Made by a program: the position numbers and the translations under genes
From: a phage
Sequence record: PZ166175.1
Strand: one strand, 5' to 3'
DNA length: 44,735 bases
Part shown: positions 22,666-44,444 of the stretch, piece by piece
Layout: each line of letters starts with the position of its first letter
How positions within the stretch are numbered: the stretch's first letter is position 1
The notes under the pieces: generated by a model
Told to the model about the DNA's origin: nothing
What the model saw: the letters and a program-made list of their open reading frames with translations, nothing else
Database searches by the model: none

Positions 22666-23623
22666 CTTTATATTGTTTTAATGCCCACTCAGGAACAAAT
22701 AGCTCTTGCTCTGTAATGCCATTAGAGTACCCTGGCCAGATATCTAGCTCCTTACACTTCTTGTAAGTAGCCAGCGCCTCAAGATACTGAAGACGGCCGA
22801 TTCTTAGCTGTTCGTCAGTTAGGGTGTACAGCATTGGTAAGTATGGCTCCACCTTCTCCTGTGCCAGCAACCCTACAGCAACCTTGCGCTTCTCGTTGAA
22901 TGCTTTCACAAACAGATCTCTCTGAAGAGCCATTTTTGCAAGGTATCCGTGCGAGAATGCCGATTTACCGAATCCTTCCGGGCTTGCGTCTGCGGTCGTT
23001 TTGTAATCTGTCAGCTTGACTATGCCATCAACAACGTCAACGTGGTCAATTCGAATCTTCACGCCGACACCAAGAATCTCACCGAATATTGATAGCTCTT
23101 TTTGTGCTGTCTCACTATTCACGATTGCATTATATGCAGGTATATTGCAAAGAACCTCACGCATAGCCACAACTTTATCGTAGTCAGCGGCACTAACTAG
23201 CTCCTTACCCTCCACAAGCGCTTGAGCGCTCTCCTGCTGCTCAATTAGCCATTTAACAGGCCAATCCTCACCAGAACGGTACATCATCTCCACGAGCTCG
23301 CTATAGCCCTTCCCGGACGTGCCGGCTACGCCAACTTTTTTAAGTGCTGACGATAATCCGGCCTGGCTTGTAATTAATCCTTCAATCGTGTCAAGGTCTG
23401 TTGCTCGCAAATATTCCCTATCAAATACGTCTTGCTCAAGAATCATGCAGTGGCTAAGGGTTCCAAACTTAAGCGCCTTGCTATCATTGTTTCGCTGCTT
23501 AAACTTCCACTTAGCTGGGGATCCCTGGATAATCTCGACAAGTGAGGAGCCAGAGATGTGATCAGTTTCAGCGTGATAAGCCTCGTTACTTAGCTCCTCT
23601 CGCGTAAAAACTTTAAAGCTCAT
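22658..23623 (-). CDS. PD-(D/E)XK recombination exonuclease (putative)
   Basis: 321-aa ORF; motif IDHVDVVDGIVKLTDYKT; paired with ERF and SSB. Confidence 0.5.
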   Translation of the reverse strand: MSFKVFTREELSNEAYHAETDHISGSSLVEIIQGSPAKWKFKQRNNDSKALKFGTLSHCMILEQDVFDREYLRATDLDTIEGLITSQAGLSSALKKVGVAGTSGKGYSELVEMMYRSGEDWPVKWLIEQQESAQALVEGKELVSAADYDKVVAMREVLCNIPAYNAIVNSETAQKELSIFGEILGVGVKIRIDHVDVVDGIVKLTDYKTTADASPEGFGKSAFSHGYLAKMALQRDLFVKAFNEKRKVAVGLLAQEKVEPYLPMLYTLTDEQLRIGRLQYLEALATYKKCKELDIWPGYSNGITEQELFVPEWALKQYKEI

Positions 23624-23626
23624 ATC

Positions 23627-23822
23627 CTATTCCTTAACCTTAACTACTTTAACAGATTTCATATCTTCCTCAGTAAAGTACCCGGTCAGCACATCGAGGG
23701 CTTCCTCTTTAGTATCGAATCTATCAGCTTCATTCTTATCTGTTGTGTAACCGGCCGGGCCACCAAAATAGCAATCGCCGAACAGTGCGTTGTTTTTCTC
23801 TTTGATAATGTAGTAGGTCATT
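23627..23822 (-). CDS. hypothetical protein
   Basis: ORF track 23627..23956; start moved to MTYYIIKEK... downstream of TATATAGTTAACCCATCGAAAT. Confidence 0.4.
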
Positions 23823-23824
23823 TC

Positions 23825-23900
23825 CGTGTCTCTCTGGTTGTTTGATTTCGATGGGTTAACTATATATTCGGCGAAGTAGCCAGTCCAATTGGTTTTGCCA
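23825..23900 (-). promoter_or_regulatory. degenerate early promoter cassette
   Basis: minus sense: TTGGCAAAACCAATTGG, spacer, TATATAGTTAACCCATCGAAA; upstream palindrome differs from consensus. Confidence 0.35.
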
Positions 23901-24143
23901 ATCGTTGACTTAAGTTTACGTGTTAATACCTTGTAATTCCGCGTAGGCATTGCCACTAGTTACGTTTCTTGGCATCTCAGCCCAGCTATAGCTCAATGTA
24001 ACCATCGTGTATATCGTGTATACCGTTTCTTGCAGAGGTGCATTGGTATAGCTGTCACGCAATACTGTATAAATCAACATGATATTGAAATTATAACCGG
24101 AACACTCTATAGAAGTAGTTACATGATATACACAGTAATATAT

Positions 24144-24158
24144 ATAATAATAATAATA
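24144..24158. repeat. (ATA)5 microsatellite inside the block paralogous to 6267..6337
   Basis: ataataataataata read directly. Confidence 0.8.
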
Positions 24159-24283
24159 AGAGTAAAAGGTTGATATATATAGATATTTTAATGTAACCAA
24201 TGCGTAACTAGGCGTAACAGGGCGTATATCATTTTTCGCGGATTAGATTGCATACATCGAGTTACATCGGTTACGTGTATGCA

Positions 24284-24367
24284 ATAGCACGAATAGCTAA
24301 AGACATTCCGCAGAGACAGCTGTATTATTACCACGTCGAAACTAAGCAACTTAACAAGGAATGCAAG
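24284..24367 (+). promoter_or_regulatory. early promoter cassette
   Basis: AATAGCACGAATAGCTAAAG, 23 nt, TATTAT, TACCACGTCGAAAC, AAGGAA, ATG. Confidence 0.45.
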
Positions 24368-24598
24368 ATGACTAACTTAATTAAATCAGCAATCATTGCC
24401 GCGGCAACAATCATGATGGTAGGTTGTTCTTCTGGCCCTCGCCCTGATGGTTGGTGCGCAACGTCCTCAAACGGCGTGTGCGTAGCTAAATGGAAAGGTG
24501 GCGTAGTTGTTCCGGCTGGTGAAATTGACATTCGCTACGATGGAATTAAAGGCTCCGGTGGCTCCGTTCGTGATTATGGCTCTAAGGAGTGGAATTAA
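24368..24598 (+). CDS. outer-membrane lipoprotein, Cor-like superinfection exclusion candidate
   Basis: ORF track 24248..24598 with start moved to ATG after RBS; signal peptide with lipobox MVGC; 76 aa. Confidence 0.5.
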
Positions 24599-25533
24599 TG
24601 GCTCAAGGTATATACATAGATCTTAATGATGGAAGGAATCCAATGACAATTACCGCAGGGATGCGAGCCTTGAATTTCGCTGGCAACTTCAACGTTTCTA
24701 GTGGTGGGTTTAGTAAGACTTTCTCAATTCAGGGTAATGAAGGAGCCTCAAGGTTCCTTATCCCTAACAATGGAGCTTACTCATTCGAACTTGATAGAGG
24801 TGTTGAGATTTACTACATAAATGGATTCTCATCAACAGCATCAAGCGGAACGATATCGATTGGCTATGAGAATGGATATCCCGACCGTATAACTCAATTT
24901 TCTGGTACTGTTGTTGAGGTACTAAGAGCATCGACTGGACAAGGTATTTATGTTGCGAATAGTACTGATTTTACCTCGATAACCACCACTGACAGGTTGT
25001 TGGTGTGCAAGTTTGCCCAGAGGATATCTTTCACCAACACATACACACTTCCAATTTATGGGATACCATTTGGAAAGTGGAGCAACCCAGGCGTTTCAGT
25101 TGAATACAACGGTAGCAACCAACTGATATGTACAAACATAAATACTGAAGATACTGGTGATACACCAGGAAGTGTCACTATGGATTTGATTATCTTCCAG
25201 ATGGTCGCTCCAACCCCTGGTCCGGGACTTAACATATTTAATTCAAATGGTGTTTGTACGCTATCGACCGTAACTAGGCCATTGGTTGTTTCTGGATTCA
25301 TAAACCTATCAGGTAGCAATCAGTACATTGGCGAATCTTACTTCCCAATACTCAGATGTGGATTTAACACAAGAGCAATACGAGCATATAAGGAGTTGAG
25401 AAACAAAGGAATCGTAATGAGCAATGGATATGTTAGATCTGGTACGGGCTCAAGGATTGTCAGATACGAGATAGGAAATAGGCCTGACGTAACAATATCA
25501 ACGCCACTTCCTTACCTTCCTGATATGTATTAA
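24598..25533 (+). CDS. hypothetical beta-rich protein (311 aa)
   Basis: ORF track 24589..25533; TAATG overlap with lipoprotein gene; Ser/Thr/Gly/Asn-rich; no signal peptide. Confidence 0.5.
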   Translation: MAQGIYIDLNDGRNPMTITAGMRALNFAGNFNVSSGGFSKTFSIQGNEGASRFLIPNNGAYSFELDRGVEIYYINGFSSTASSGTISIGYENGYPDRITQFSGTVVEVLRASTGQGIYVANSTDFTSITTTDRLLVCKFAQRISFTNTYTLPIYGIPFGKWSNPGVSVEYNGSNQLICTNINTEDTGDTPGSVTMDLIIFQMVAPTPGPGLNIFNSNGVCTLSTVTRPLVVSGFINLSGSNQYIGESYFPILRCGFNTRAIRAYKELRNKGIVMSNGYVRSGTGSRIVRYEIGNRPDVTISTPLPYLPDMY

Positions 25534-25537
25534 ATAT

Positions 25538-25563
25538 AAAGCCCCTTTCGGGGCTTTTGTTTT
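25538..25563. terminator. rho-independent terminator (convergent junction with gpJ-like gene)
   Basis: AGCCCC-tttc-GGGGCT followed by TTTTGTTTT. Confidence 0.6.
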
Positions 25564-28500
25564 AGAAAGTACCTACCACAACTCTTCCTCCTCCAGGCAA
25601 GTTAACCGTTATTCCGTTTCCGTTAATCTGTACCGTATTGTTTATTCCGTTGAAAGCGAATTCACCACTGTTGGCGTACAGTTTACCGCGAATCTCAGCG
25701 TTACCAGACTTATCAATCCTCCAGCCTGTGCTTCCTGCTACGTAGTTGCTGGACTGAATAAAGTTACCAATCTTCGCGTTGCTGATTGAGCCATCACCGA
25801 TTACTGCGCTCTGGATGATTACGTTTCCGTTCTCGACAACGAAGGGGAGTTGCCATTGACCGGAGCCAGAACCAATACCATTACTGATTGCGAATCTGTT
25901 TGCGTCAAAGATGAACTGACTGCGAACATTACCACCAGTGCCAACTAGCTCCATGCTCATGCCGGACGAATAAGTCTGTCCATTGTATTTCAGGCCAAGA
26001 CTAATTCCGTACTGTACGCCAGTTGACGTGGCATTAGAGAAAGCATCCAGTTTCTGGTTTAGTGCCGCCTCGTTATCACCCAATCTTGCTGATAGAGCCG
26101 TGTCTGCAGTAGCCCTTGCTTCTGTCTCGGTGGCTAGCGCCGTCTGAACTTCTGTAATCGATGCTACAACTTCATCATCTATCTGTGCTTTAAGGGCTGT
26201 GAGAGCCTCTACGCGCGCCTGAGTTTCATCGGCTATGAGATTAACAGCCTGAACATATTCAGCCTTACGCTTGCCGTTCTCCTTAGTCATGCGACGAACA
26301 TCAGTGTCATTAGCTAATGCGTTCTCAAGAATTGATTCTGCCTGGTTCTGGATGTCCTGATTCTTTTGAATCGCATTCTGTTCGAGGTATTTGAATCCTT
26401 CTGAGCCTTCAATATCAACCTTGATGTAGTCATTGATAATGTTTTCGTCGTCAGTACTCATGCCTCTTGCGAAACTAGACCAATCAGACGTATTACCTAT
26501 TCTGTCAATCAATCTTGCGCGATACCAGATAACCTTACCTGGCTGAATAGGAGTATGCCAGTATTCATAGGCTGGATAAGGCAGCAACGTCAGCAAGCTT
26601 GCGTTATCAGGATTGTAAGTACCATCGCCATTATCAGGAACCTGCTGAAGCTCAGTGTAAGCAGTATCACCAGAGCCATCAGGGAATCCCCATTTAACAC
26701 GGATGCCAAATACCTCATCTGTTGATGCCGTGATAACAGTAGGCGCTGATGGGCGACCAATCTTGCCAGTTAGTGATACCGTTACAATGTCAGACCAGGC
26801 AGACACGTTTTCAGTATCTGATACGCTGCGAACCCTAACGTCATATATTCCTGCGTAAATACCTTCGATATCAACTTCTGTACTAGCTGTTCTTGGTACG
26901 TTAATCCAGTTACCATTTTCCTTCCTCCACTGAACATTGTAGGTTTTGGCGTATGGTGCCTTATCCCATCCGATAACCATCGTCTCAACCGATAAGCCCT
27001 GAACAACCTTACTGTAGCTTGATACAGTCAAGTTTTCTGGTGGCGATAATCTGTCAGGCTCAACAATTGAAGTTGGTCGGTCGACAATATTTACGCCGTA
27101 GTCAATCTCGTCATACTTGTTAGGGTCATACTCTACTGCGGTAATTGTATACTGGAATGAGTCCGAGCCGTCAGAATCTGCTTTTTGAATCCCGGTCACA
27201 ACGTATTGCTGAAGCGCGAGGTTATCCTTGTCGATTGCGAACACAGTATCAGGTTGAGCTACAAAGCTAAAAGCAGTATTCAGGTTGATGGTTCTACCGT
27301 CTTCCGAAATGCTGGCAATAGTTCTCGCTTCAGGGCTTCCGTCTGGTTTGTTCAGAAGAATTCTGTCACCTGGCGCTGCGTCAACTTTAAACGGGGTAAA
27401 AACCTGCAATCCCTGAACTGATTCAATACGACCGGAAAGGTTTAACTGATAGTTGCTGGACCATGCCGCGTCATTGACCGCAATGACCTCTCCAATCATC
27501 GGAATCATGCCCTCCAACCCAGTGGTGAAGCTGATAGTTTCGCTTCTCAGATTGGTTTTTAGGAGCCATCTGCCGCGTCTGTTTGCTTCACTTCTTCTCG
27601 TACATCCGATTGCCGTGAGATCTACTGGGTTGAATCCGAATCGACGAGTGGCTTCCAGTTCAAATACTGGTTCAACATCCTGCTGATAGTTGTTCTCCAC
27701 ATCATCAAACTGAACGTTTGCCGTAGTGTAAAGGCTCTTATCGCTGGCAAATGTGCGGCTGAATAATCCATTAACGACGTTATCATTCGTGAAGATGTAA
27801 GATGGATTACGAGGTTTGTCGACAACAATACCAATCTTTTCGCCATCGTAGAAAGTTAAGCCACGGAAGATTGAGCAGATATCACGAATTAGTGTGTAGG
27901 CCTCAACTTTATTCTGAACAACCATATCGCACAGGTAGCGCGGCTCCATGCCGCCTTTTCCATCTGGAACCATTTGGTCGCAGAATTGCGCAGCCTCGTA
28001 AAGACCCCACTTATCAATCTCTACACCTAGTTCTCGCTGGTCAAGACCGTAGCGGCGGTTTGTCACTAAGTCATACAGAACCCACGCTGGGTTGTTTGAC
28101 CATGCCATTTTGAATAGGCCATTCCATGTCCCGCTGTAAGTTCTGGTTTCAGGGTCGTAGTTAGTTGGGACCTGAATCAGCTTCCATCTCTTCTTGATTG
28201 AGATTGTCGGGATACCGTTAGGGAATAAGTCAGAGCCAAACTCAACGTAAACCAGAGCCGTAAGCGGATAGCGGAATTTAGCATCTATTACTTCCTGATA
28301 GGTTGTAATTTGCATTCCGTTAACCAGGGTGCTACTTGTTGAATCTGGTGTAATCTTGCGGATGCGAACCAGTGCGCTATCAAATTCAGCCGGAAGGTTC
28401 ACGCGAATGCTTCTGTCGTAACCTGTAGTGGTTTTCCCGTTAGCAACTCCGCGAGTGTATTCCTGGTAAGCCCCGCCATTAACAGACAGGTCAATCGCAT

Positions 28501-28972
28501 ACTCGCAAGTAGTTCCGTTCAGATCGCCATTACTTTCTTGCTTAACCAGCCTGGGCCAATATAGCTTTACACGAATCGCTGATAGCTGAGTATTGTTAAC
28601 CGCAATGATGTAAGGGGTATCGTTCGTGATTTCTCTGGAAGCCTGAATCTCTGAGTTAGCACCATCAAGACCAGCGATATAGTCCTGATACTGCGTGCCA
28701 GCACGGAACTCAGCGCGAACACCCTCGTAGTTGTAGCTACCATCCTGGTTTTGCACTGGAACATCAGCAAGGTATAAATCCTTCATTGAGAAGTTTGAAT
28801 CCACCTCTCCGTCAGCAACAGCAAGCAACACCTTAACCTTGTTAAGTGAAATAAGGTTATCTTCCTGTTCAACTGGTTGATGCTGCTTCTGGCTACCGCC
28901 TTTAGCACCATAAATCTTAATCTCTTCAGCCATATCACAAAGCCTCATGTTTGTTTTGATCATTTGTGCCAT
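25562..28972 (-). CDS. central tail fiber / host specificity protein (lambda gpJ-like)
   Basis: 1136-aa ORF at the distal end of the tail module after gpI/K/L/M-like genes. Confidence 0.7.
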   Translation of the reverse strand: MAQMIKTNMRLCDMAEEIKIYGAKGGSQKQHQPVEQEDNLISLNKVKVLLAVADGEVDSNFSMKDLYLADVPVQNQDGSYNYEGVRAEFRAGTQYQDYIAGLDGANSEIQASREITNDTPYIIAVNNTQLSAIRVKLYWPRLVKQESNGDLNGTTCEYAIDLSVNGGAYQEYTRGVANGKTTTGYDRSIRVNLPAEFDSALVRIRKITPDSTSSTLVNGMQITTYQEVIDAKFRYPLTALVYVEFGSDLFPNGIPTISIKKRWKLIQVPTNYDPETRTYSGTWNGLFKMAWSNNPAWVLYDLVTNRRYGLDQRELGVEIDKWGLYEAAQFCDQMVPDGKGGMEPRYLCDMVVQNKVEAYTLIRDICSIFRGLTFYDGEKIGIVVDKPRNPSYIFTNDNVVNGLFSRTFASDKSLYTTANVQFDDVENNYQQDVEPVFELEATRRFGFNPVDLTAIGCTRRSEANRRGRWLLKTNLRSETISFTTGLEGMIPMIGEVIAVNDAAWSSNYQLNLSGRIESVQGLQVFTPFKVDAAPGDRILLNKPDGSPEARTIASISEDGRTINLNTAFSFVAQPDTVFAIDKDNLALQQYVVTGIQKADSDGSDSFQYTITAVEYDPNKYDEIDYGVNIVDRPTSIVEPDRLSPPENLTVSSYSKVVQGLSVETMVIGWDKAPYAKTYNVQWRKENGNWINVPRTASTEVDIEGIYAGIYDVRVRSVSDTENVSAWSDIVTVSLTGKIGRPSAPTVITASTDEVFGIRVKWGFPDGSGDTAYTELQQVPDNGDGTYNPDNASLLTLLPYPAYEYWHTPIQPGKVIWYRARLIDRIGNTSDWSSFARGMSTDDENIINDYIKVDIEGSEGFKYLEQNAIQKNQDIQNQAESILENALANDTDVRRMTKENGKRKAEYVQAVNLIADETQARVEALTALKAQIDDEVVASITEVQTALATETEARATADTALSARLGDNEAALNQKLDAFSNATSTGVQYGISLGLKYNGQTYSSGMSMELVGTGGNVRSQFIFDANRFAISNGIGSGSGQWQLPFVVENGNVIIQSAVIGDGSISNAKIGNFIQSSNYVAGSTGWRIDKSGNAEIRGKLYANSGEFAFNGINNTVQINGNGITVNLPGGGRVVVGTF

Positions 28973-28980
28973 TCTACACT

Positions 28981-29006
28981 AAATAAAAAACCCGCACTAG
29001 GCGGGT
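28981..29006 (-). terminator. terminator-like hairpin between gpI-like and gpJ-like genes
   Basis: CCCGC-actag-GCGGG followed by T-run in minus sense. Confidence 0.45.
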
Positions 29007-29013
29007 ATGATGT

Positions 29014-29586
29014 TTAAGCAATATCTTCACTATAAGATCCGGCACTAAATACCGAACCGCCAACCGTTCGATAGCCATAAGGTAGGCAAACAGGATAACC
29101 AGCTGCTACAGTGTTTACAGCTGAGCCAAATGCGTAAGAGGCGCGGTTGCTTGTTTGGTTGTCCTGCGTCTTTAATCCAGTTGCTTGAGGTGAAAGTATC
29201 TGGGCAATACCACCTGCTGCCAAAGATACGCCAGCGCCGACAAGATAAATCTGCCCAGAAATGATACCAACCGTGATAAGTGCGGCACCTAAAATTGTCT
29301 GAAACAACCCACCAGACTTTCGGCCTTGAGGGATTGGTAAGATGCGTATCTCCTGAACGGCACTAAAATCAGAGATTCGATGCTCGTTCACATTTTTGCC
29401 ATCAACGAACACGGCGTACCTTGTGTTCTGACCGACATGGCTATTCATGAACTCCTTGAAGGCGGGAATCTGAGAGCAGAGCGCTCGCATTGCTTCGGGA
29501 ACGCTATTCACTGCCATTTGGTGAATCTTTCCAAACTTACGGCCTAGTGATAGGCCCAACTTAATGTCAATCAGTTTCTGGGTCAT
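29014..29586 (-). CDS. tail assembly protein (lambda gpI-like)
   Basis: 190-aa ORF with Gly/Ala-rich hydrophobic C-terminal half; position between gpK-like and gpJ-like. Confidence 0.55.
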   Translation of the reverse strand: MTQKLIDIKLGLSLGRKFGKIHQMAVNSVPEAMRALCSQIPAFKEFMNSHVGQNTRYAVFVDGKNVNEHRISDFSAVQEIRILPIPQGRKSGGLFQTILGAALITVGIISGQIYLVGAGVSLAAGGIAQILSPQATGLKTQDNQTSNRASYAFGSAVNTVAAGYPVCLPYGYRTVGGSVFSAGSYSEDIA

Positions 29587-30325
29587 AAATTACATCCTCT
29601 GGTAAATCCTTGTGGCGAACGATTCGCACAGTGCGCTCGCGCCAGTAATCGGAGTAGACATCAACGGAGCTCATTTTACCATAAAGATGATGAATGAATC
29701 TGTTGTTGCCAATGTAGATTCCGGCGTGGTTTGTCACCTCGCTTTGCACCTGCATCATAATCATTGAGCCAATTGGAATATCTGAAGTTTTTACCAGCTC
29801 AAATCCTTCCTTAATCCAGTTGTCGTCATAGATATTTTCATTGTACCGCCTCTCCCACCACGGGTAATTAACGCGATAGTCATTCAGTTTTACGCCGTAT
29901 TTCTTGTGAAATTCCATGACTAAGCCCCAGCAATCAAAGCTACCAAGACCCCACGGGCGACCAATAAGAGGCATCGTTGATGGTTCAAGTATTCTCATAT
30001 CTCCCTCTGGTATGCTTACGATAACATATGGAATCTCGCACTCATTGCAGCTACAGATATCCGCAGGGCTGGGTCTTGTCGTGGCTCCATCACCTGTGTG
30101 GGAGTGAACCACGTAAACAATAGATTCACTGTGAGCCAAATTAAAGAGAACATCTGCATACTCATTTGAATCAAGAATAAATTCATGCTCTGGGTCCTTG
30201 CTGGCATTGGTGATTCTGTGATATTTCTGGGCTCGTCCCTTCTGCGTGACAACGCCACAGCATTCTTGCGGGTAAACTTCTTTTGCGTGGTGGAAGATTT
30301 GCAGCTTAACTTTTGGTGTTAACAT
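29567..30325 (-). CDS. tail assembly protein (lambda gpK-like, JAB/MPN + NlpC/P60)
   Basis: ORF track 29567..30349, start moved to MLTPKV...; motifs HSH and DCWGLV...H. Confidence 0.65.
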   Translation of the reverse strand: MLTPKVKLQIFHHAKEVYPQECCGVVTQKGRAQKYHRITNASKDPEHEFILDSNEYADVLFNLAHSESIVYVVHSHTGDGATTRPSPADICSCNECEIPYVIVSIPEGDMRILEPSTMPLIGRPWGLGSFDCWGLVMEFHKKYGVKLNDYRVNYPWWERRYNENIYDDNWIKEGFELVKTSDIPIGSMIMMQVQSEVTNHAGIYIGNNRFIHHLYGKMSSVDVYSDYWRERTVRIVRHKDLPEDVIYDPETD

Positions 30326-30383
30326 TTTATCTCCAATAAAAAAGGCCAATCTCTCGATTGACCCAGTTTAACACTAATTTCGT

Positions 30384-30743
30384 TTATTCAAAATAAACCT
30401 CGAAATCTATAAATACTGAAACACCCTTTGATTTAAGCTCCTCAACCTCTATCAAACTATCATCAAAGAATTTCTTAGTAACATCAATCCCATTCATTCG
30501 ATACTTCATCTTGCCATCGTGAGCATCCTTGCGAGGAGTCACTCCCTCTACTCGTGAGAAGTCGTAACAATCATCACAAGTCATGCTGTTAAATTTTACA
30601 ATATTGCCATTCTCATCTTGAGTCTGATAGTGCCTGTTTGAGTCAACAACATTGCAGGTGTAAATGCAGCCAGCAAAAAACAAACCAGCGCACTTTTCTT
30701 TTTCTTTTTTGTATCCGTTAAATTTAATGTAGAACATTTTCAT
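30384..30743 (-). CDS. hypothetical Cys-rich protein, inserted gene inside the tail operon
   Basis: ORF track; own early-type promoter cassette upstream; multiple Cys pairs. Confidence 0.5.
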   Translation of the reverse strand: MKMFYIKFNGYKKEKEKCAGLFFAGCIYTCNVVDSNRHYQTQDENGNIVKFNSMTCDDCYDFSRVEGVTPRKDAHDGKMKYRMNGIDVTKKFFDDSLIEVEELKSKGVSVFIDFEVYFE

Positions 30744-30744
30744 C

Positions 30745-30815
30745 TCCTCTTGTTTCGATATGGTAACTATAACCCATCTTTCAAAATCGCCTTTAGCAAT
30801 TTGTGCTATTTAGCT
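30745..30815 (-). promoter_or_regulatory. early promoter cassette inside the late tail operon
   Basis: minus sense: AAATAGCACAAATTGCTAAAG, 22 nt, TATAGT, TACCATATCGAAAC, AGAGGAG, ATG. Confidence 0.5.
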
Positions 30816-31565
30816 CTGGTTTGCTTTAGCCTGAAGGCTTGCTGCTGCGCATCCACCAAATGAAATCTGATTATTCTCACCAAATCTAAGCTTGCAGCTA
30901 TTTACCGTTCCGGCGCAGAAGTCTAATGAAGGGTCTGATACTGGGTTATCATCCTTGTCAAAGTAACGATTACCAGCGTAGTCGCAACCATTCCCGCTAC
31001 GATACCAGCCACGTGAAGCCCAATAGCAAACAGACTGAACAAGTCTCGCCGGGATATAAATGCCATCCATATCCATCGGGCTACTAAGCTCAAATGATGC
31101 CGTCTTGTAATCAACCTGCCTAGGTCGCTCAATGAAGTAAACAAATCGGCGATAGTCCCCATCAGCAATACTTCCGTCTTCATTAATATTATCGCGCGTA
31201 GTAATCCAGATTGTAACCTTAGCCTTAACCAATCCATTGTAAGTACGTATAAGTGCGCTAATGCGCTGGTCTACGTTTGATACTGTTAGCGTTACTTTGT
31301 TGGCCTTCCCGTCAGAAGTCATATTGATGCCCGATATACCGAAAGGTCTAGGACCATACTCTTCACCGCGAAATGTAATAGTCTTCTCTGGTAGTGGCTC
31401 CCCATTCATTTGAGCCATCATAATCTCTTCTGGCGTGTATGAAATGTTCTCATTGTGGAAGTTGTAAACGAGACTTCCGAAGGAGGTTCCGTCAACCTGG
31501 ATTAGTGTCACAATCTCGCCAGGGAAAAGGCTTTGCAACTGATTTTCAAACTTTGAACTTAACAT
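30810..31565 (-). CDS. minor tail protein (lambda gpL-like)
   Basis: ORF track 30810..31577, start moved to MLSSKF... after TTGGAGAAA; C-terminal Cys cluster. Confidence 0.6.
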   Translation of the reverse strand: MLSSKFENQLQSLFPGEIVTLIQVDGTSFGSLVYNFHNENISYTPEEIMMAQMNGEPLPEKTITFRGEEYGPRPFGISGINMTSDGKANKVTLTVSNVDQRISALIRTYNGLVKAKVTIWITTRDNINEDGSIADGDYRRFVYFIERPRQVDYKTASFELSSPMDMDGIYIPARLVQSVCYWASRGWYRSGNGCDYAGNRYFDKDDNPVSDPSLDFCAGTVNSCKLRFGENNQISFGGCAAASLQAKANQS

Positions 31566-31577
31566 ATATTTCTCCAA

Positions 31578-31599
31578 TAAAAAAGCCCCTAATGGGGCT
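31578..31599 (-). terminator. terminator-like hairpin between gpM-like and gpL-like genes
   Basis: AGCCCC-atta-GGGGCT followed by TTTTTTATT in minus sense. Confidence 0.5.
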
Positions 31600-31603
31600 T
31601 AGT

Positions 31604-31954
31604 TTAACGCATTGAGCTAAAAACTTCTACGAATTGCATGCTCACAGTCTGAACTTCCTTGCTGAGCGGAGTGACGCTAATGCTATCCTGCTGAATCACG
31701 AACATGGATGTATCACCCTGCGGAGTTGTCCAGAAGAATGGAGTAATGATGTGGTTGAAGCAAAAAACCATCACATCTCTCCAGTCCTTGTTAGTGTATG
31801 TCATCTGGTAGCTTCTAGTGTTACTACGATATCCACCCGTACCCCTTTGGGTGTAACCATTGCCGAAGCTAACAATTCGCACGTTGTTCGTATTACTGAA
31901 TGAAGCTGAGCCACCCTGTATTTGAGTACACCAGTTGAAAGTATCAATAGCCAT
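31604..31954 (-). CDS. minor tail protein (lambda gpM-like)
   Basis: 116-aa ORF directly downstream of tape measure gene. Confidence 0.55.
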   Translation of the reverse strand: MAIDTFNWCTQIQGGSASFSNTNNVRIVSFGNGYTQRGTGGYRSNTRSYQMTYTNKDWRDVMVFCFNHIITPFFWTTPQGDTSMFVIQQDSISVTPLSKEVQTVSMQFVEVFSSMR

Positions 31955-31965
31955 AAAAATCCTTA

Positions 31966-31984
31966 GGGGCCTAAGCCCCGTTAA
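31966..31984 (-). repeat. conserved 19-nt hairpin element GGGGCCTAAGCCCCGTTAA, copy 2
   Basis: identical to 21700..21718; between tape measure stop and gpM-like RBS. Confidence 0.7.
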
Positions 31985-34963
31985 TTAGTTAAATCCGCGA
32001 AGGTACTGATAAGCTTTCCCACCCTGCTGGAAGGACTGAGCAATCTCTTCCGCTACGATGGCCTTGACGCCATTCTGCAATGCCTTGGCTTGCTCTGGGT
32101 CGCTACCGACACCTGAGTTTACGTTAACAGTGATGCCGCTAACATTAACATCCGAACCAACAGAAACCAAGCCGCCATTTGCATAACCAGATGGACCACC
32201 TACAGCGCCGCCGTTTGCATACCCCTTCATTAGCGCGTAAAGGTTTTTCACACCGATTCGGCTTGTAGCTTCTTTTGTGAATACAAACTCACCACGGTGC
32301 ACAGTGCCTGCTGGCTGGTACTTACCGCCGTCACCAGTGTAACCGCCACCGGCGAAACCTATAGCAGACGCAAAAGAGCCAAACGCATTACCTCCACCAC
32401 CACCAAAGCTAGTCAATGTTGACTCGATGGCCTTAACCAAAAGTAACTGAGTTGCAATCTTCGCAATCATTTTGAGGATGCTTGCTGTGAACTCCCTAAA
32501 ATTGGTCTCACCAGTGGTTACAAGGTTTGTAATTTGCTCTGTAATCCCTTCGAATGCCGCAACTGTCAAGTCCTTAGCAATCTTGTTGTAGTCTGTATAT
32601 TTATCAGTCAAGTCTGCAAGCGTTGATGTTACGCCAGCTTGCCAATCAGACCTAAGATTATCTTCCTGCTTGTAGTATTCCTTTCTTGCATCTAGTAACT
32701 GCTGAAAATCAACATCATCGACAGAACCACCAGCATTAACCTGATTGGATTGAAGTGCCTGAATTTCCTTAGCTCTTTGCTGCTCGCGAGATGATAATCC
32801 AGCCCCCAAATTAATATTGCTTGCTTCATTGTTAATCTGAATAATCTTCTTGCGGTTATCTTCAGCTAGCTTATTGGCTCTCTCCTGCAAAACAATCTGA
32901 TCACCTAGCTCAGCCTTCTGCCTGGATAACTCAAGAACCTTATCCTTTTCAATGAGAAGTCTTGCTTGCTCTTTTTTTATTGAGCCATCACGCTGTCTTT
33001 GCTCAAGAATCTGGAATTTTGCAACCTCCTGAAGATACTGCTTGCGCTCATTGCTTATTACTGAGCCAATATCCCTGTTTTCCTGAAGCACCTTGAGTTG
33101 TGCCTGTAGTGCAAGCACGCCAGATTCGTAACCAATTGTAAGGTCTCTTTGCTCTTTAACCCTACCATTTTCTTCTTTCCTGTTCTTCTTGATCGCATCA
33201 AGTTCATCCTGAAGCGCTTTCTTCCTTTTTGAAAACTCCTCATCCGTGCCTGACTGCTCATTGGTATTCTGATTTTCTCTGCGAGTAACGTAACCAAGTT
33301 CTCCTTCTCTGATTCTGGCATCGCGCTCCTTGATGGACTTCTCTAGCTCAAGGTTTTGCTTCTTAGCGGCATCGATAATCTTCTGCTGTCCCTTTATAAC
33401 ATCATCACCAACACCATCAAGGCCGGGGATGTTCTGCAATGCCTGTGTTGCGCTAATTACGAATTCACCAATCAGCACATCACCCTGGTTAATGAAGACC
33501 CTGATTTGCTCAATTGTTCCGGCAATTACGTCAACAAACAGGTTCAGCGCCCCAACCGTTCTACGACTAATTGCATCCCAGATATCAGAGATGTACTTCT
33601 TAAAGTCATTCCATGCCAATTCAAGTGGTGTCAATTGAGCTGCTATGTCGTTAAGGTTGGCTTCCTGCGACTTGCTGAAAATATCAATCGCGGCGGTAAC
33701 AGCCTCAACCTCTCCCTTTGTCTTTCTCAGGTTTTCGATTGTCGTCAACTGCCCCTGCGTGAGGAAGTTAAAGCGCTTATCCAAATCAACTAAACCCTGG
33801 ATTGGGTCGCTTGCAATCTGGTTATAGTAACCAGTAATCTCCTTCGCATCCTTACCTGTCAACTGCGCCCATCTGGCGGTTGATTTGGTAATCTTGTCAA
33901 TCTGCGTCAGCGTAAGGTTCCCTTGCTCAATAAGGCTTGTTGCGATGCTAGTCACAAGTCCTCTGGTGGCACCAGTAGCATCAGAAACAGAGCTAACCAA
34001 CTCTCTAACCTGCGAGATTGATGCGATTGTGGAGTTGTTTGAGAACACAATGGCAGAATTTAATGCTCTGAATTCACTCTCTGCCTGAGCGGCACCGATA
34101 CCGAGAGCAACAAGTGCCCCACCCAAAACGCCAACAGCAACATTGAATGGATTTAAGGCTTCGAGCGCGAATCTAAAGGTGTTACCAATACCTCCAAATG
34201 CATCCTTAATTTGTCCGCCTTGCTGAATTGCAATAAGCCAAATCGGAATGCCGCCAGCAAGTGATGTCCCAATATCTGTAATCTGCGCTGGCAATTGAGA
34301 GATTGCAGCCTTGTATTGACCCGCGCTTAAGCCAGAGCGTCGAAAGGCCTTGCTCTGAGCAATTAGCTGGGTGTTTGCCTTCTGTGATGCATCGGCGATT
34401 CTGTCAATAATAGGCGCTGCCTGAGAACTTACGCCAAGCTGAGCAGCCTGTAATTTTAAGTACTCCTCACGCGTCAATGTTGCCGCTTGAGCCTGTCGCT
34501 CAAGTGACTCAATGAACCTGTCAGCTTCAGCCTTCGCTTTTGCCTTATCCTTTGCGGCTTGAGCTGCTGCCCTACCCTCCTCAGTTAGCGCCGCACGTGA
34601 GCGAGCAAGCTTTGCGTTCTGCGTTTCAAGCGCCTCACCTAATCGGAAAAACTCCTCATCAGGAACCACGCCAGCCGCGAAAGCCTTATCCAGACCTACA
34701 GCAGCCTCCTGGAGTTTACGGAACTTTGCCGCAGTTGGATCAATAGCAGTTTGCAATTTAGCTAAAGATGCTTGTTGCTCAGCAAGTGCGCGAGCGGTAT
34801 CTCTAGCCTGGTTTTTAGCAACCTGCTCAGCGTTGACGAACTCACTAATACCGGAAGCGGCTTGCTGGTTTGCCTGCCTGAACTTCTGTAGTGATTGAGT
34901 GCCCCTGTCTACTTGCGCGACGTCTACGGCTAGTGTTATTCCGGCTAATTCATTTGTTGCCAT
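31985..34963 (-). CDS. tail tape measure protein
   Basis: 992-aa ORF, Ala/Gln-rich coiled-coil composition; downstream of G/T-like chaperone pair. Confidence 0.8.
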   Translation of the reverse strand: MATNELAGITLAVDVAQVDRGTQSLQKFRQANQQAASGISEFVNAEQVAKNQARDTARALAEQQASLAKLQTAIDPTAAKFRKLQEAAVGLDKAFAAGVVPDEEFFRLGEALETQNAKLARSRAALTEEGRAAAQAAKDKAKAKAEADRFIESLERQAQAATLTREEYLKLQAAQLGVSSQAAPIIDRIADASQKANTQLIAQSKAFRRSGLSAGQYKAAISQLPAQITDIGTSLAGGIPIWLIAIQQGGQIKDAFGGIGNTFRFALEALNPFNVAVGVLGGALVALGIGAAQAESEFRALNSAIVFSNNSTIASISQVRELVSSVSDATGATRGLVTSIATSLIEQGNLTLTQIDKITKSTARWAQLTGKDAKEITGYYNQIASDPIQGLVDLDKRFNFLTQGQLTTIENLRKTKGEVEAVTAAIDIFSKSQEANLNDIAAQLTPLELAWNDFKKYISDIWDAISRRTVGALNLFVDVIAGTIEQIRVFINQGDVLIGEFVISATQALQNIPGLDGVGDDVIKGQQKIIDAAKKQNLELEKSIKERDARIREGELGYVTRRENQNTNEQSGTDEEFSKRKKALQDELDAIKKNRKEENGRVKEQRDLTIGYESGVLALQAQLKVLQENRDIGSVISNERKQYLQEVAKFQILEQRQRDGSIKKEQARLLIEKDKVLELSRQKAELGDQIVLQERANKLAEDNRKKIIQINNEASNINLGAGLSSREQQRAKEIQALQSNQVNAGGSVDDVDFQQLLDARKEYYKQEDNLRSDWQAGVTSTLADLTDKYTDYNKIAKDLTVAAFEGITEQITNLVTTGETNFREFTASILKMIAKIATQLLLVKAIESTLTSFGGGGGNAFGSFASAIGFAGGGYTGDGGKYQPAGTVHRGEFVFTKEATSRIGVKNLYALMKGYANGGAVGGPSGYANGGLVSVGSDVNVSGITVNVNSGVGSDPEQAKALQNGVKAIVAEEIAQSFQQGGKAYQYLRGFN

Positions 34964-34976
34964 CTAAGCCTCCATA

Positions 34977-35008
34977 ATAGAAAACCCGCCGAAGCGGGTT
35001 ATTTTTTT
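34977..35008. terminator. bidirectional terminator-like hairpin upstream of tape measure gene
   Basis: AACCCGC-cgaa-GCGGGTT with T-runs on both sides. Confidence 0.5.
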
Positions 35009-35310
35009 CTCAGGTTATCCATCATCTCAAGAGCCTTAGCTTCAAGGATGCGTAAATCGCTGAGTACCAATTCTTCTTCAGAAACATTATACACTCTAAA
35101 GAGGAAATTTAGCACGTTGTAATCTAGCCCTGTAGCTCCGTTAGCTCCGACTCTCCACTGCGTAGCCATTGAACAATAAATGTCCCACGCCTTCATCATG
35201 TTGTCGTCGAAGTGCAAAACCTCAGGCTCTTCGTCTTCGTAATCAGAGCGGCGCATCCCAATAGCTTCCAGTTCGGCATCTGTTGGCTCTGACTGGTACT
35301 GTAGATACAC
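34999..35310 (-). CDS. tail assembly chaperone, gpT-like frameshift extension
   Basis: ORF in the -1 frame relative to 35319..35633; slippery heptamer A_AAA_AAC at the junction. Confidence 0.6.
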   Translation of the reverse strand: MYLQYQSEPTDAELEAIGMRRSDYEDEEPEVLHFDDNMMKAWDIYCSMATQWRVGANGATGLDYNVLNFLFRVYNVSEEELVLSDLRILEAKALEMMDNLRKK

Positions 35311-35318
35311 CGCCCTCT

Positions 35319-35633
35319 TTAGTTTTTTACCCGCTGGCCTGCCAGTGCCTGCATATAAGCGGTAGTAAGTGCAACGGTTGAGGCTGGGAACAGGTCGGAG
35401 AACTCATTAACGTTATCCTCGTTGTATTCTTCTTCCAGATCCCAATCAGAAGCAATTGCCATGATAAGTTCTTTGGTGCTCAAATCTTCCTTGCTAAGCA
35501 ATTCCTGCAACTCAGATGTTTTCTTATGCTTGACTGTAAAGATAACCTCTACATCCTGGTCGTTAGCCAGCTTGAATTTTACCGGAAGCTTGAAGTCTGG
35601 CAGCGCCGCCAGTGAAAGTTTGAACTTTGCCAT
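35319..35633 (-). CDS. tail assembly chaperone (gpG-like)
   Basis: 104-aa acidic ORF between major tail and tape measure genes; ends ...GTA AAA AAC TAA. Confidence 0.6.
   Translation of the reverse strand: MAKFKLSLAALPDFKLPVKFKLANDQDVEVIFTVKHKKTSELQELLSKEDLSTKELIMAIASDWDLEEEYNEDNVNEFSDLFPASTVALTTAYMQALAGQRVKN
35322..35328 (-). other. programmed -1 ribosomal frameshift site A_AAA_AAC
   Basis: heptamer in zero-frame codons AAA AAC one codon before the gpG-like stop; -1 frame reads into 34999..35310. Confidence 0.6.
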
Positions 35634-35682
35634 CTTAGTTAATCCTCTTATTGTTTGTGAGTATGTATTCTATTACTTAGTT

Positions 35683-35920
35683 CTTTCTTTTGCAATCTTA
35701 GCGGCTGAGTCCTTACAAACCTCCTTGCCATATTTCATGATTTGGTCAACTTTACCACCCGCAAGTTCCTGGCATGCTCGCTCAGCCTTAGAAAATTCAA
35801 CAGTATATTTGTTTGCCTTGCTATTTGCACCAGCCTCGCCAGTTGGGTTAACAATCTGAACTACTGCATAAAAAGCAACCAGAACTGCAGCAAGCTTGAT
35901 AATTTTTTAACGTTATTCAT
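35683..35920 (-). pseudogene. small secreted-protein gene interrupted by a frameshift at an A6 run
   Basis: ATG after RBS AAGGAA gives MNNVKK then stops after 19 codons; the -1 frame continues for about 70 aa; one extra A restores an 85-aa signal-peptide ORF. Confidence 0.4.
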
Positions 35921-35924
35921 TTCT

Positions 35925-36000
35925 TAATTCCTTCATTTCGTTTCGATGAGTTAACTATACAGGAAGATTGCATTAACGCTTTAGCAAAAAGTGCCATGCA
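35925..36000 (-). promoter_or_regulatory. early promoter cassette inside the late operon
   Basis: minus sense: CACTTTTTGCTAAAG, 22 nt, TATAGT, TAACTCATCGAAAC. Confidence 0.45.
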
Positions 36001-36001
36001 A

Positions 36002-36024
36002 TAAAAAACCCTCCGAAGAGGGTT
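36002..36024 (-). terminator. rho-independent terminator downstream of major tail protein gene
   Basis: AACCCTC-cgaa-GAGGGTT followed by TTTTTTAT in minus sense. Confidence 0.6.
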
Positions 36025-36030
36025 TGTGCT

Positions 36031-36687
36031 TTAAACTTCAGCTGCCACAGAGGACAGACGACCACGAATGGATACAGCTATGGATACCGTTTCGATTTCG
36101 TTAACACCAATGGTAGGGGTGTCGTTGAAAGCGATAGTGCCGGACTGCAGACGCATTTCCTGAGCGCGAGGTACAAACAGACGAATAGCAACAACCTGGC
36201 CAGACTCATCGTAGTTACGCAGGACAGGATAAACCGGGTTAGTGTACTCATGAGCGAAGGTGAAGGTGTTCGTTACCGCAGATTTATAAGTAGGAATCTG
36301 CTGCTCACGGTCATCAGAAAGACACTGGAAGTTAACGAACTGCTGTTCGCCGCCATCAGTGGAAACGTCCTGAACGCACGGAACTTCGAACCATGAAGTA
36401 ATCTTAACAACCTCACCAGTTAAGCCAGCAGGGAACTTAGTGGTGTTGGAGGTATCAATACCTTCAACTGTTACCGAAGTGCCAGAAACTTCAGTTACTC
36501 TCACCTGCTTGTCGCTAAGTAGGGTTGAGCTGGAGGCGGTAAACAGAAGGTAGTCACCCTTAGCCAGGCCGGATCCGTCAGATACAGTTAAAACAGGGGT
36601 AGCTGCGTTAGAGATTGCAGTTACGTTAATTGCAGTTCCGCGAGATCCTTCTACGAAGACCTGCGTGCCATTTGATAAATGAGCCAT
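36031..36687 (-). CDS. major tail protein (putative)
   Basis: 218-aa ORF upstream of the chaperone pair with a strong terminator after it. Confidence 0.5.
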   Translation of the reverse strand: MAHLSNGTQVFVEGSRGTAINVTAISNAATPVLTVSDGSGLAKGDYLLFTASSSTLLSDKQVRVTEVSGTSVTVEGIDTSNTTKFPAGLTGEVVKITSWFEVPCVQDVSTDGGEQQFVNFQCLSDDREQQIPTYKSAVTNTFTFAHEYTNPVYPVLRNYDESGQVVAIRLFVPRAQEMRLQSGTIAFNDTPTIGVNEIETVSIAVSIRGRLSSVAAEV

Positions 36688-36702
36688 GTATTTTTCCTTT
36701 TG

Positions 36703-37104
36703 TTAGTCTAGACGAACATAAAAACGAACCGGGATAAACCACCCAGACTTGGATTTGATAACAGGGTTAACAACTCCAGACTCATAAATGGTCCCGCTGT
36801 CAAGCATTGTACCATCAACGATAGATTCTGCCAATTGATTAGCGATTTGCCTGGGTCTATCAATTCCAGTTCCCGGGCTGAAGAACACTGAAATCTGCAC
36901 CATTCCTACATAGTATTTACACTTCCTACTCAGTCCGTAGGTTACAGTGTCAACTTCCGTGTAGTCGTACTTAAGCCAGATTGACCCATCTGCCGGAGGT
37001 GTGAATGCAGCATTCTCCCACGCAACTGGATATCTGACCGGAAACTCACTCACCAGTAAATCATTGACGAATTTCCTTGCCGCTAATGATAATTCATATT
37101 GCAC
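36703..37104 (-). CDS. tail completion / tail terminator protein (putative)
   Basis: 133-aa ORF; assignment by position only. Confidence 0.4.
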   Translation of the reverse strand: MQYELSLAARKFVNDLLVSEFPVRYPVAWENAAFTPPADGSIWLKYDYTEVDTVTYGLSRKCKYYVGMVQISVFFSPGTGIDRPRQIANQLAESIVDGTMLDSGTIYESGVVNPVIKSKSGWFIPVRFYVRLD

Positions 37105-37531
37105 GACGAGCCTCCTCCACTGCTTCTTGGAAATACCTGCCTAACCTTGCCTGAACAACACCTAAAACACCTGCTGGAGCCTGATTTGATGCGCCATACT
37201 CAAGCCTAGCAGCATAATCAAGTCGGTTAGTTATATAAATAACGCTTGTGGCTTTTGAATTAGCAACTGCCATGGCTTGCCTGGCGAGGTATGTTTTCGT
37301 CTGCCCACCAGTCTGATCGTACTCATTGAGTGACTGATTGGCCGGTGAGTTTGCGGTGATTTGCCAGTTAGCCTTGAACCTACCAGTGTCGACAGGAGAT
37401 AGGTCTACAATTGCGTTAGCTGTTTTTGTGACTGTATTAGCCACTACAATCTCAAAACCACTTTCCGCTCTGTCAATCCAGTCAGCAATAGATTTCTCAA
37501 AAGTAACCACGCTTCCAATGTTTCTAGCCAT
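37094..37531 (-). CDS. neck/tail completion protein (putative)
   Basis: ORF track 37094..37708; start moved to MARNIGS... (ATG overlapping upstream stop) to avoid a 185-nt overlap. Confidence 0.4.
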   Translation of the reverse strand: MARNIGSVVTFEKSIADWIDRAESGFEIVVANTVTKTANAIVDLSPVDTGRFKANWQITANSPANQSLNEYDQTGGQTKTYLARQAMAVANSKATSVIYITNRLDYAARLEYGASNQAPAGVLGVVQARLGRYFQEAVEEARRAI

Positions 37532-37907
37532 AAGTAGCCACCCTACGAAGAATCGGTCTATACCCAACAACTGTTCCGGTTGGTTTAACGGGCCGTGGGT
37601 CAATAACAACAAAAGTCTCACCATCGACTTTAATCTGATAACCCTGCCTGATTTCAATCTGAGCCGTGAAGATTCCGCGCTTATCGCCAAACTGGATAAA
37701 CTCGCCATCGATATCTCGAGTCTTAATTTCTCGCACCAAACCTTTTAGTTGAAATGTTTGCGAAGGCACTTCAACCTCAACGCCGTTAACGATTTCAACA
37801 TATCCAGCGCCGGTACTCATTTCATAAACACCATTAGCATCACTAAAGAAGTTAATGCCAGCGCGAGTAATTGATTCGATTTCGTTGTAGTTCATCGGCA
37901 ACCGCAC
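37524..37907 (-). CDS. head-tail joining protein (putative)
   Basis: 127-aa ORF; position only. Confidence 0.4.
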   Translation of the reverse strand: MRLPMNYNEIESITRAGINFFSDANGVYEMSTGAGYVEIVNGVEVEVPSQTFQLKGLVREIKTRDIDGEFIQFGDKRGIFTAQIEIRQGYQIKVDGETFVVIDPRPVKPTGTVVGYRPILRRVATYG

Positions 37908-38308
37908 CCACCGCCACCAGCGGAAGTAATCAATCCAAAGCCGCCACCTTTCTTGCGGATAAGCGCCTTGTACATGCGACCCCAGGAGGAGGATGATAAA
38001 TCACCCTGGATTGCTGATTGGTTATCATAGGTTATAGAGAATTCACCGCTCAGTGCATAACTTGACATTCTACGGCTGTATGTTTCCAGGCCTTCATTCT
38101 CACCCTTAAATGCGCCATCAGCAAGCATCAGGTGTAGCGCATAAAGACCGACAGCCTTGTCTTTGTCTGCACCAAACTTGCTTTCGCATACATATAGACG
38201 TGCCAAATCAATCCATACATTAATTGCTTCGTCATCCACCGCTTTAAGCGCAGGAACAAGAGAGCGCATAAACGCCAAAATTGCATCATTCATATTAGCT
38301 CCATACAA
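37892..38308 (-). CDS. head-tail connector / head completion protein (putative)
   Basis: 138-aa ORF; Gly-rich Cys-containing C-terminus; position only. Confidence 0.4.
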   Translation of the reverse strand: MYGANMNDAILAFMRSLVPALKAVDDEAINVWIDLARLYVCESKFGADKDKAVGLYALHLMLADGAFKGENEGLETYSRRMSSYALSGEFSITYDNQSAIQGDLSSSSWGRMYKALIRKKGGGFGLITSAGGGGCGCR

Positions 38309-38334
38309 TAAAGGACGCCGAAGCGCCCTGTTTG

Positions 38335-38580
38335 TTATTTGTACTCGTTACCAGTCTCAGCTTCGGAGATGGTTTTCGGTTCTTTGCGCTTTTTCTTGCT
38401 AACAATCTCTTGCGCGATTTGCTTGGTTGCTTTAGCGTCACCTTCAATAGTGAGTTTACCCTCTGCGATTAAACGCTTGAGTCCGTCGCAAATTACATCA
38501 ACCTCGAGAGTGTCACCAGGTAAATATTTCTCACCCTTGTAAACGATAAGGCAAGCGCCAGTATGCTCTAAACGAATCAT
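38335..38580 (-). CDS. hypothetical protein (81 aa)
   Basis: ORF track; between capsid gene terminator and connector genes. Confidence 0.4.
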   Translation of the reverse strand: MIRLEHTGACLIVYKGEKYLPGDTLEVDVICDGLKRLIAEGKLTIEGDAKATKQIAQEIVSKKKRKEPKTISEAETGNEYK

Positions 38581-38644
38581 TTTTGTCTCCTTTGTTTATC
38601 TGATTGAGTGATTATAACCCAACAATTCCATTTGGTACAGACGT

Positions 38645-38668
38645 AAAAAAAAGCCCTCCGAAGAGGGC
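38645..38668 (-). terminator. rho-independent terminator downstream of major capsid protein gene
   Basis: GCCCTC-cgaa-GAGGGC followed by T8 in minus sense. Confidence 0.65.
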
Positions 38669-38674
38669 GATTTA

Positions 38675-39616: not shown

Positions 39617-39708
39617 TCTTTATTGTTCCTTTTCAGTTATGTGTATACGGATTCATTATACAGTAGGGCGACCGCAAATCAACAGATAAGTTAGTCGCCC
39701 ATAATTCG

Positions 39709-40281: not shown

Positions 40282-40336
40282 GATTTATCTCCTTTTCTAA
40301 GTGACAATTGAATATAACATAGGCGTAATTTGATTA

Positions 40337-40359: not shown

Positions 40360-40376
40360 TTTATATATCTTAATTA

Positions 40377-40886: not shown

Positions 40887-40898
40887 GTTTATAACTCC

Positions 40899-44441: not shown

Positions 44442-44444
44442 TTG

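Follow-up and report, generated by a model that had tools for sequence, protein, structure and literature searches.

Siphophages that recognise their host through the outer-membrane protein LptD are known from genetics and from structure. Maffei et al. 2021 (PMC8594841) mapped spontaneous resistance against phages Bas01 and Bas02 to in-frame lptD deletions, described a "bona fide RBP locus" downstream of gpJ whose alleles track receptor specificity with no exceptions, and predicted that phage Rtp targets LptD. That OzMSK, an Rtp-like phage, depends on LptD was confirmed by Black et al. 2025 (PMC13035648), who predicted that the receptor-binding protein (RBP) folds into a pair of lectin-like beta-sandwiches; loops lie at the tip, and the base holds the conserved N-terminus. 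Dunbar et al. 2025 (PMC12685063) placed the RBP of phage Oekolampad (RBP-Oeko) deep in the extracellular side of open-state LptDE, with an interface of approximately 1,700 Å2. The same study showed that Rtp45 binds LptDEM from the periplasm, and that a beta-hairpin reaching up the LptD lumen moves extracellular loop 4 (EL4) by up to 20 Å, which sterically blocks RBP binding (PDB 9RPS). A 2026 preprint (10.64898/2026.04.02.716166) again ties the family to LptD and models the Bas02 RBP on it; Bas01 is reported to require both NupG and LptD, and the need for NupG is ascribed to a NupG-specific GpJ domain. Here we describe a locus of this kind, two plus-strand genes at 24368 to 25533 in the phage DNA of sequence record PZ166175.1. 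The whole stretch of 44,735 nucleotides is referred to as the window.

The window holds the genome of a T1-like siphophage, of Braunvirinae type. Its tail-to-head half, 25562-44735, has DNA approximately 90% identical to BEK6, OzMSK, BEK1-1 and Veterinaerplatzvirus isolates. The tail genes are on the minus strand, the last of them encodes a GpJ homologue, and the two plus-strand genes converge on it. We consider it very probable that an Rtp-like siphophage (Braunvirinae, Drexlerviridae) has in these two genes its cassette for host recognition through LptD, made up of an RBP and an exclusion lipoprotein. The basis for this phage is homology, synteny, sequence features and purifying selection. 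The experiments were made on close homologues, namely LptD dependence for Bas02 (PMC8594841) and the structures of RBP-Oeko and Rtp45 with LptDE (PMC12685063). The cassette as such is thus already known, and the copy in the window is a further allele of the Bas02/BEK1-1 subtype. It has the following features:

24283..24367, plus strand: cassette leader with promoter-like elements and a Shine-Dalgarno sequence; conserved
24368..24598, plus strand: predicted Rtp45-type superinfection-exclusion lipoprotein, 76 aa (Pfam PF24052, 9RPS chain D, Rtp45 identity)
24598..25533, plus strand: predicted LptD-specific tail-tip RBP, 311 aa (Pfam PF20051, 9RPT chain C, Bas02/Rtp44 identity)
25538..25557, both strands: bidirectional intrinsic terminator hairpin (prediction, folding, conservation)
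25562..28972, minus strand: GpJ-like central tail fibre or tip protein, 1136 aa (PHROG 31, Pfam FNIII-A_GpJ, Phage_Tail_Tip)

All elements of the layout given in a preliminary description of the locus were found again; one coordinate and some of the labels were amended.

The two proteins of the cassette

The 311-aa protein matches Pfam PF20051 (DUF6453) with 396.6 bits (cutoff 25), residues 4-291 covering positions 1-290 of the 291 in the profile, and PHROG 1265 with an E value of 1.6e-96. It aligns over its full length to chain C of 9RPT, which is RBP-Oeko (E 1.8e-40, residues 1-311 against 1-321). Identity is 99.4% to the homologue in BEK1-1, 97.7% over 311/311 residues to bas02_0024 of JeanPiccard (Bas02), 96.8% to that of 12210I, 88.4% to that of HK578 and 79.1% to Rtp44. 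Two published definitions of the family can be applied. Black et al. (PMC13035648) use a 930-960 bp open reading frame (ORF) directly downstream of a gpJ homologue, and the gene in the window is 936 bp long and ends 28 nt from the convergent gpJ stop codon. The preprint (10.64898/2026.04.02.716166) uses more than 30% identity at more than 99% coverage, values exceeded by the full-length match to Bas02. The match to a solved structure over the whole protein, together with the identity to the Bas02 protein, therefore settles the family assignment. No assignment had been offered for this protein in the preliminary description, yet one exists in PMC8594841, PMC12685063 and PMC13035648. Of the two roles guessed there, receptor binding agrees with the homology to LptD-specific RBPs and that of an exclusion partner does not.

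Serine, threonine, glycine and asparagine make up 38.6% of the residues of the 311-aa protein. There is no hydrophobic stretch at the N-terminus, and the maximum Kyte-Doolittle value (window of 19) is 1.28, which gives no transmembrane segment. The earlier picture of a Ser/Thr/Gly/Asn-rich protein that lacks a signal peptide is thus correct. A single-sequence AlphaFold2 model had a mean predicted local distance difference test score (pLDDT) of 30.9 and a predicted template modelling score (pTM) of 0.24, too low for a fold search. From the homology to 9RPT chain C alone, a double beta-sandwich fold with loops at the tip would be expected.

By homology, the 311-aa protein is almost certainly a tail-tip component of the virion. 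A structural role in the virion had been named beforehand as an outcome that would refute the first interpretation, and this outcome is almost certainly the case. The idea of an exclusion operon without a structural protein is then wrong, and the operon would be a tail-tip host-specificity module together with its cognate exclusion factor.

The lipoprotein gene starts with the ATG at 24368, as the frame from 24369 runs into stop codons. A Shine-Dalgarno sequence with a good match, AAGGA, is found at 24356-24360. Residues 1-19 form the signal peptide, with K6 and a hydrophobic core of residues 7-18, and are followed by M-V-G-C20; predicted lipidation at Cys20 leaves a mature protein of 57 aa. 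The strict lipobox [LVI][ASTVI][GAS]C is not matched because the residue at -3 is Met. The sequence fits the PROSITE PS51257-type pattern, the Met at -3 is exactly as in Rtp45, and the +2 residue is Ser, a non-Asp residue compatible with outer-membrane sorting. A 76-aa lipoprotein with the lipobox MVGC, as first described, thus stands with a predicted signal peptidase II site of the PS51257 type.

The lipoprotein matches PF24052 "Phage_lipoprotein" with 123.5 bits (cutoff 27), and the PHROG counterpart is PHROG 4281. Its only significant PDB match is chain D of 9RPS, which is Rtp45 (E 3.2e-43). The two proteins are identical at 66 of 76 positions (86.8%), and the mature parts are 87.7% identical, differing at 7 of 57 positions. 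Cysteines occur only at positions 20, 30 and 38, and all are kept relative to Rtp45; a disulfide between Cys30 and Cys38 is seen in the Rtp45 structure 9RPS (PMC12685063). We infer that the lipoprotein of the window binds the periplasmic side of LptDE and blocks the RBP and infection. The suggestion that it acts as a receptor-blocking superinfection-exclusion factor is in this way supported through Rtp45.

Compared to six relatives, the ratio of nonsynonymous to synonymous substitution rates (dN/dS) is 0.015-0.08 for the 311-aa gene and 0.12-0.24 for the lipoprotein gene. Both ORFs are therefore real genes under purifying selection. There are also signs of mosaicism within the cassette. In the comparison with BEK1-1, the RBP is 99.4% identical but the neighbouring lipoprotein 93.4%, and dS is 0.19 for the RBP gene versus 0.33 for the lipoprotein gene. 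Most of the lipoprotein differences between the window and BEK1-1 are within the signal peptide.

We suggest the following model, based on the homologues. The RBP, a monomer, would insert its tip, which carries the loops, from the extracellular side into the LptD barrel of LptDE, the lipopolysaccharide translocon, leading to irreversible adsorption. The infected cell would make and export the lipoprotein, which would receive its lipid at Cys20 and be sorted to the outer membrane's inner leaflet. In this position it would bind LptDE from the periplasm, and its beta-hairpin, reaching up the LptD lumen, would displace extracellular loop 4 so that RBP binding is blocked. Superinfecting LptD-dependent phages would be excluded, and the progeny would probably be spared adsorption to debris. 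Both genes would be co-transcribed from a cassette promoter, translationally coupled and ended by a terminator common to gpJ.

Expression signals and the upstream region

A consensus scan of the leader gave AAGACA (24300-24305) and TATTAT (24323-24328), spaced by 17 nt and agreeing with the consensus at 9 of 12 positions. Promoter-like matches are not enriched in the region, with 8 observed and 5.3 expected. The leader of approximately 85 nt, which begins at 24283 (AATAGCAC), is conserved among phages with different upstream genes, and homology with Bas02, BEK1-1 and 12210I restarts exactly at this point. Positions T1, A2 and T6 of the -10 hexamer are invariant across the relatives compared. 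The conserved leader and the invariant -10 positions make a promoter plausible despite the weak match, and the leader plausibly carries a promoter that travels with the cassette. The earlier proposal that the cassette has its own promoter is thus favoured by the conserved, promoter-like leader and disfavoured by the imperfect consensus and the lack of enrichment.

The two genes very likely form one transcription unit. They overlap by TAATG at 24596-24600, and AAGGAG (24584-24589) lies 8 nt ahead of the second ATG; the overlap in the sequence confirms the translational coupling that had been described.

The terminator consists of AAAGCCCC-TTTC-GGGGCTTT at 25538-25557 followed by TTTTGTTTT, that is, an 8-bp GC-rich stem and a T-run. 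It was called on both strands and occupies the 28 nt between the converging stop codons. Its context of 51 nt folds with -15.6 kcal/mol (z = -3.4), and 8 related phages share the hairpin unchanged. A strong terminator facing the gpJ-like gene, as proposed, is therefore present, and it is bidirectional. An Rfam scan of 23600-25700 gave no credible match, the best scores being far under the gathering threshold.

Some further elements were observed upstream of the leader and around its start. A perfect 10-nt inverted repeat at 24247-24285, with the arms ATTGCATACA and TGTATGCAAT and a 19-nt spacer, lies 15 nt upstream of the putative -35 element. As RNA it folds with -14.4 kcal/mol (z = -2.4). 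Phages FP and XT34 have the arms ATTGTATACA and TGTATACAAT, from which the window differs by two compensatory changes, T>C / A>G; the right arm in Rtp has 1 mismatch. The repeat could be an operator or a hairpin, on thin evidence of one covarying pair.

Three repeats of the type GCGTAA(C/T) (TGCGTAACT, GGCGTAACA and GGCGTATAT) are found at 24189-24235 in a phase of approximately 11 bp. They are located in the 411-nt intergenic region between a divergent recombination operon on the minus strand and the cassette, and they are kept in Rtp, FP and XT34. To us they look like a binding-site array for a DNA-binding protein.

The region just upstream of the leader is an insertion hot spot in the relatives. 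The comparison was made between 23957-24282 of the window and the regions L001 6158-6847, L003 3223-3870, L006 717-1695 and L008 3003-4933. The hot spot holds a Dcm-like C5 methyltransferase in Bas01 and Bas02 and Roi/anti-repressor-like DNA-binding proteins in BEK1-1, 12210I and Bas01. It is without a gene in the window, Rtp, FP and XT34.

Receptor assignment and alternative readings

Several points weigh against the assignment of the locus as an LptD host-recognition cassette. LptD binding, virion incorporation, promoter use and timing of expression are, for this phage, inferred from homologues, and the promoter agrees weakly with the consensus. The one RBP with a solved structure shows modest identity. 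Where RBP-Oeko makes its contacts around Gln299, the alignment has gaps and lacks conservation, and the binding mode may therefore differ in detail. Even for T1 the structure does not resolve the C-terminus of GpJ, on which the RBP would dock. We found no virion proteomics for any DUF6453 protein; the structural proteins identified in AHP24-type phages were seven abundant ones only. Finally, PHROGs and RefSeq name the family "membrane protein" or "moron".

The last two points could be taken to mean that the 311-aa protein is a "membrane protein" moron of the host cell, outside the virion, and the exclusion partner of the lipoprotein. In brief, Pfam gives the label DUF6453, PHROG 1265 is called "moron... 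membrane protein" and RefSeq lists rtp44 as "membrane protein"; the gene is also very likely co-transcribed with an exclusion gene on the strand opposite to the tail genes. However, the protein has neither a signal peptide nor a transmembrane segment, and the lack of any hydrophobic segment argues against the "membrane protein" label. Two independent surveys found no exception to the match between alleles of the gene and receptor specificity, and binding of a homologue to LptDE at its extracellular face, over an interface of 1,700 Å2, makes sense only for a protein carried by the virion. We regard this reading as highly improbable. Under the name "DUF6453" the literature gave a single, unrelated mention, and the database labels for both genes lag the literature.

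A further reading accepts the RBP family but lets the allele in the window recognise a different or an additional outer-membrane protein, by NupG co-dependence or by a shift in specificity. RBP loci are modular and exchanged by horizontal transfer (PMC8594841), Bas01 needs NupG and LptD (10.64898/2026.04.02.716166), and the protein diverges by 21% from Rtp44, with 65 substitutions spread over its whole length. Against this stand the 97.7% identity to the protein of the LptD-dependent phage Bas02, a cognate lipoprotein orthologous to the LptDE-binding Rtp45, and the placement of the NupG need in a GpJ domain rather than in the RBP. The GpJ homologue of the window (1136 aa) is 97.4-97.8% identical to GpJ of Bas02 and Rtp. 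GpJ of Bas01 has a 33-aa insertion and a divergent flanking block in the coiled-coil region (residues ~900-960 in GpJ of the window); insertion and divergent block are missing from GpJ of the window, Bas02, Rtp and BEK1-1. The last ~170 residues of GpJ are near-identical in all five LptD phages compared (the window, Bas02, Rtp, BEK1-1 and Bas01). This pattern fits the NupG-linked GpJ domain and the RBP-matching GpJ tip of the preprint (10.64898/2026.04.02.716166), and GpJ is the presumed docking partner of the RBP. Since GpJ of the window is of the Bas02/Rtp type and the NupG need is placed in the Bas01 GpJ domain, LptD alone is expected as protein receptor. We therefore rejected NupG co-dependence, and a different or additional receptor seems quite unlikely overall.

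The lipoprotein had been called Cor-like, with reference to the lipoproteins at this locus in T1-type phages. A Cor-type FhuA blocker, as in T1, phi80 and N15, would have a similar size and the same lipoprotein nature and position beside the gpJ locus, and the signal peptide found here weakly resembles T1 Cor. In a BLASTP comparison with T1 Cor, 12 of 40 positions were identical, all within the signal peptide and lipobox and interrupted by a 10-residue gap. T1 Cor scores 17.3 bits against PF24052, under the 27-bit cutoff. With no homology to T1 Cor in the mature part and T1 Cor below the family threshold, membership of the Cor family was rejected. FhuA-type RBP genes like T1 ST31 and ST32 are not present at the locus, and the 86.8% identity is to Rtp45, whose structure was solved on LptDE. 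There is no similarity to T1 ST31 (E 3.4), and kinship with the T1 post-J genes was rejected as well; the locus architecture also differs. The label is thus an analogy only and the real relative is Rtp45: the predicted receptor is LptD instead of FhuA, and the T1 post-gpJ module differs in architecture and encodes unrelated proteins. That the lipoprotein is a Cor-type FhuA blocker is to our judgement next to impossible.

The assignment as an LptD host-recognition cassette has some practical value. From sequence alone, the essential protein LptD is predicted as terminal receptor, along with an LptD-directed exclusion lipoprotein, for two genes that public databases still name "DUF6453", "membrane protein" or "hypothetical protein". 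LptD-targeting phages are relevant to phage therapy and "phage steering". They are also laboratory contaminants that are hard to avoid, because fhuA (tonA) strains are not protected against them. Current understanding is unchanged by this locus.

Comparison with known systems

The arrangement in Rtp is exactly that of the window. The genes rtp45 (231 nt) and rtp44 (936 nt) overlap by 1 nt and rtp43, encoding GpJ (3411 nt), is convergent; orientation and terminator are the same, and the same recE/erf/ssb genes and lateral tail fibre gene come next. Compared to Rtp, the lipoprotein is 86.8% identical, the RBP 79.1% and GpJ 97.8%. Unlike the locus as a whole, the RBP of the window is clearly of another subtype than those of Rtp44 and Bas01, and dS is saturated at 2.1. 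Three of the seven mature lipoprotein positions that differ (33-35) are in the strand pairing with LptD beta6.

The same RBP subtype as in the window is found in JeanPiccard (Bas02; bas02_0025 and bas02_0024), BEK1-1, 12210I, HK578 and Veterinaerplatzvirus alleles. Bas02, BEK1-1 and 12210I differ from the window by extra plus-strand genes upstream, encoding a Dcm-like methyltransferase and a Roi/anti-repressor-like protein.

Oekolampad (Bas18; 9RPT, 9RPW and 9RQI) has an RBP of the same family, alignable over the full length, and its gene likewise follows gpJ. Conservation is good in the N-terminal ~30 residues and in the central core. In contrast to the window, Oekolampad is a Dhillonvirus outside Drexlerviridae. 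Its RBP is distant, and the C-terminal contact region is not alignable residue by residue. Dhillonvirus homologues are 33-34% identical to the 311-aa protein, and RBP-Oeko and Rtp44 share 33% identity (PMC12685063).

The lipoprotein is 74-78% identical in OzMSK, CJ19, AHP24-type phages and ACG-M12, whose RBP is only ~40% identical to that of the window. LptD seems to constrain the lipoprotein, at the periplasmic face, far more tightly than the RBP, at the extracellular face; this hints at cross-exclusion between RBP subtypes. With such conservation next to diverged RBPs, the lipoprotein could act as one plug against many RBP subtypes. We speculate that RBPs of the window type dock on LptD in another pose or state than the Oekolampad "open-gate", and that the lipoprotein could exclude all RBP subtypes, although we find this proposal rather doubtful.

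Homologues of the Rtp45 family occur outside siphophages with this cassette. In Gordonclarkvirinae/Kuravirus podophages (SU10 gp104, Bas87, Bas89 and Bas94) they show 38-47% identity with E values of 1e-8 to 1e-11. They sit among small early genes, in SU10 (NC_027395) at 3986-4267, and no DUF6453 homologue of these podophages was among the matches listed. For these Gordonclarkvirinae podophages, no receptors other than O-antigen and LPS core are named in the BASEL-2 paper, and the N4-like Pseudomonas phage DEV contacts LptD. These podophages may either also touch LptD, like DEV, or carry the gene to exclude LptD-dependent siphophages. In Klebsiella Webervirus phages a lipoprotein homologue with 55% identity is located approximately 10 kb from a DUF6453 RBP homologue; in phage NJS3 it is at 2507-2734, between helicase and Dam methylase genes. 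The tight coupling of lipoprotein and RBP seen in the window is therefore not universal.

T1 resembles the window in having a post-gpJ module in the same slot, between gpJ and the recE/erf/ssb genes (ST32/ST31), and an exclusion lipoprotein of ~75 aa, Cor. It differs in that its two post-J genes run in the direction of J and have no sequence relationship to the genes of the window. Cor is also a separate single gene, with homology undetected beyond the signal peptide, and the receptor is FhuA.

In T5, llp and oad are transcribed divergently. The Pfam search gave no sequence relationship between T5 pb5 or Llp and the proteins of the window. The logic is alike: the central fibre carries a monomeric RBP at its tip, and a small lipoprotein, facing the periplasm, prevents RBP binding (PMC9586334, as cited in PMC12685063). 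The receptor in T5 is FhuA. The systems differ in that FhuA is a TonB-dependent transporter and in that Llp acts by long-range allostery, whereas Rtp45 physically displaces EL4.

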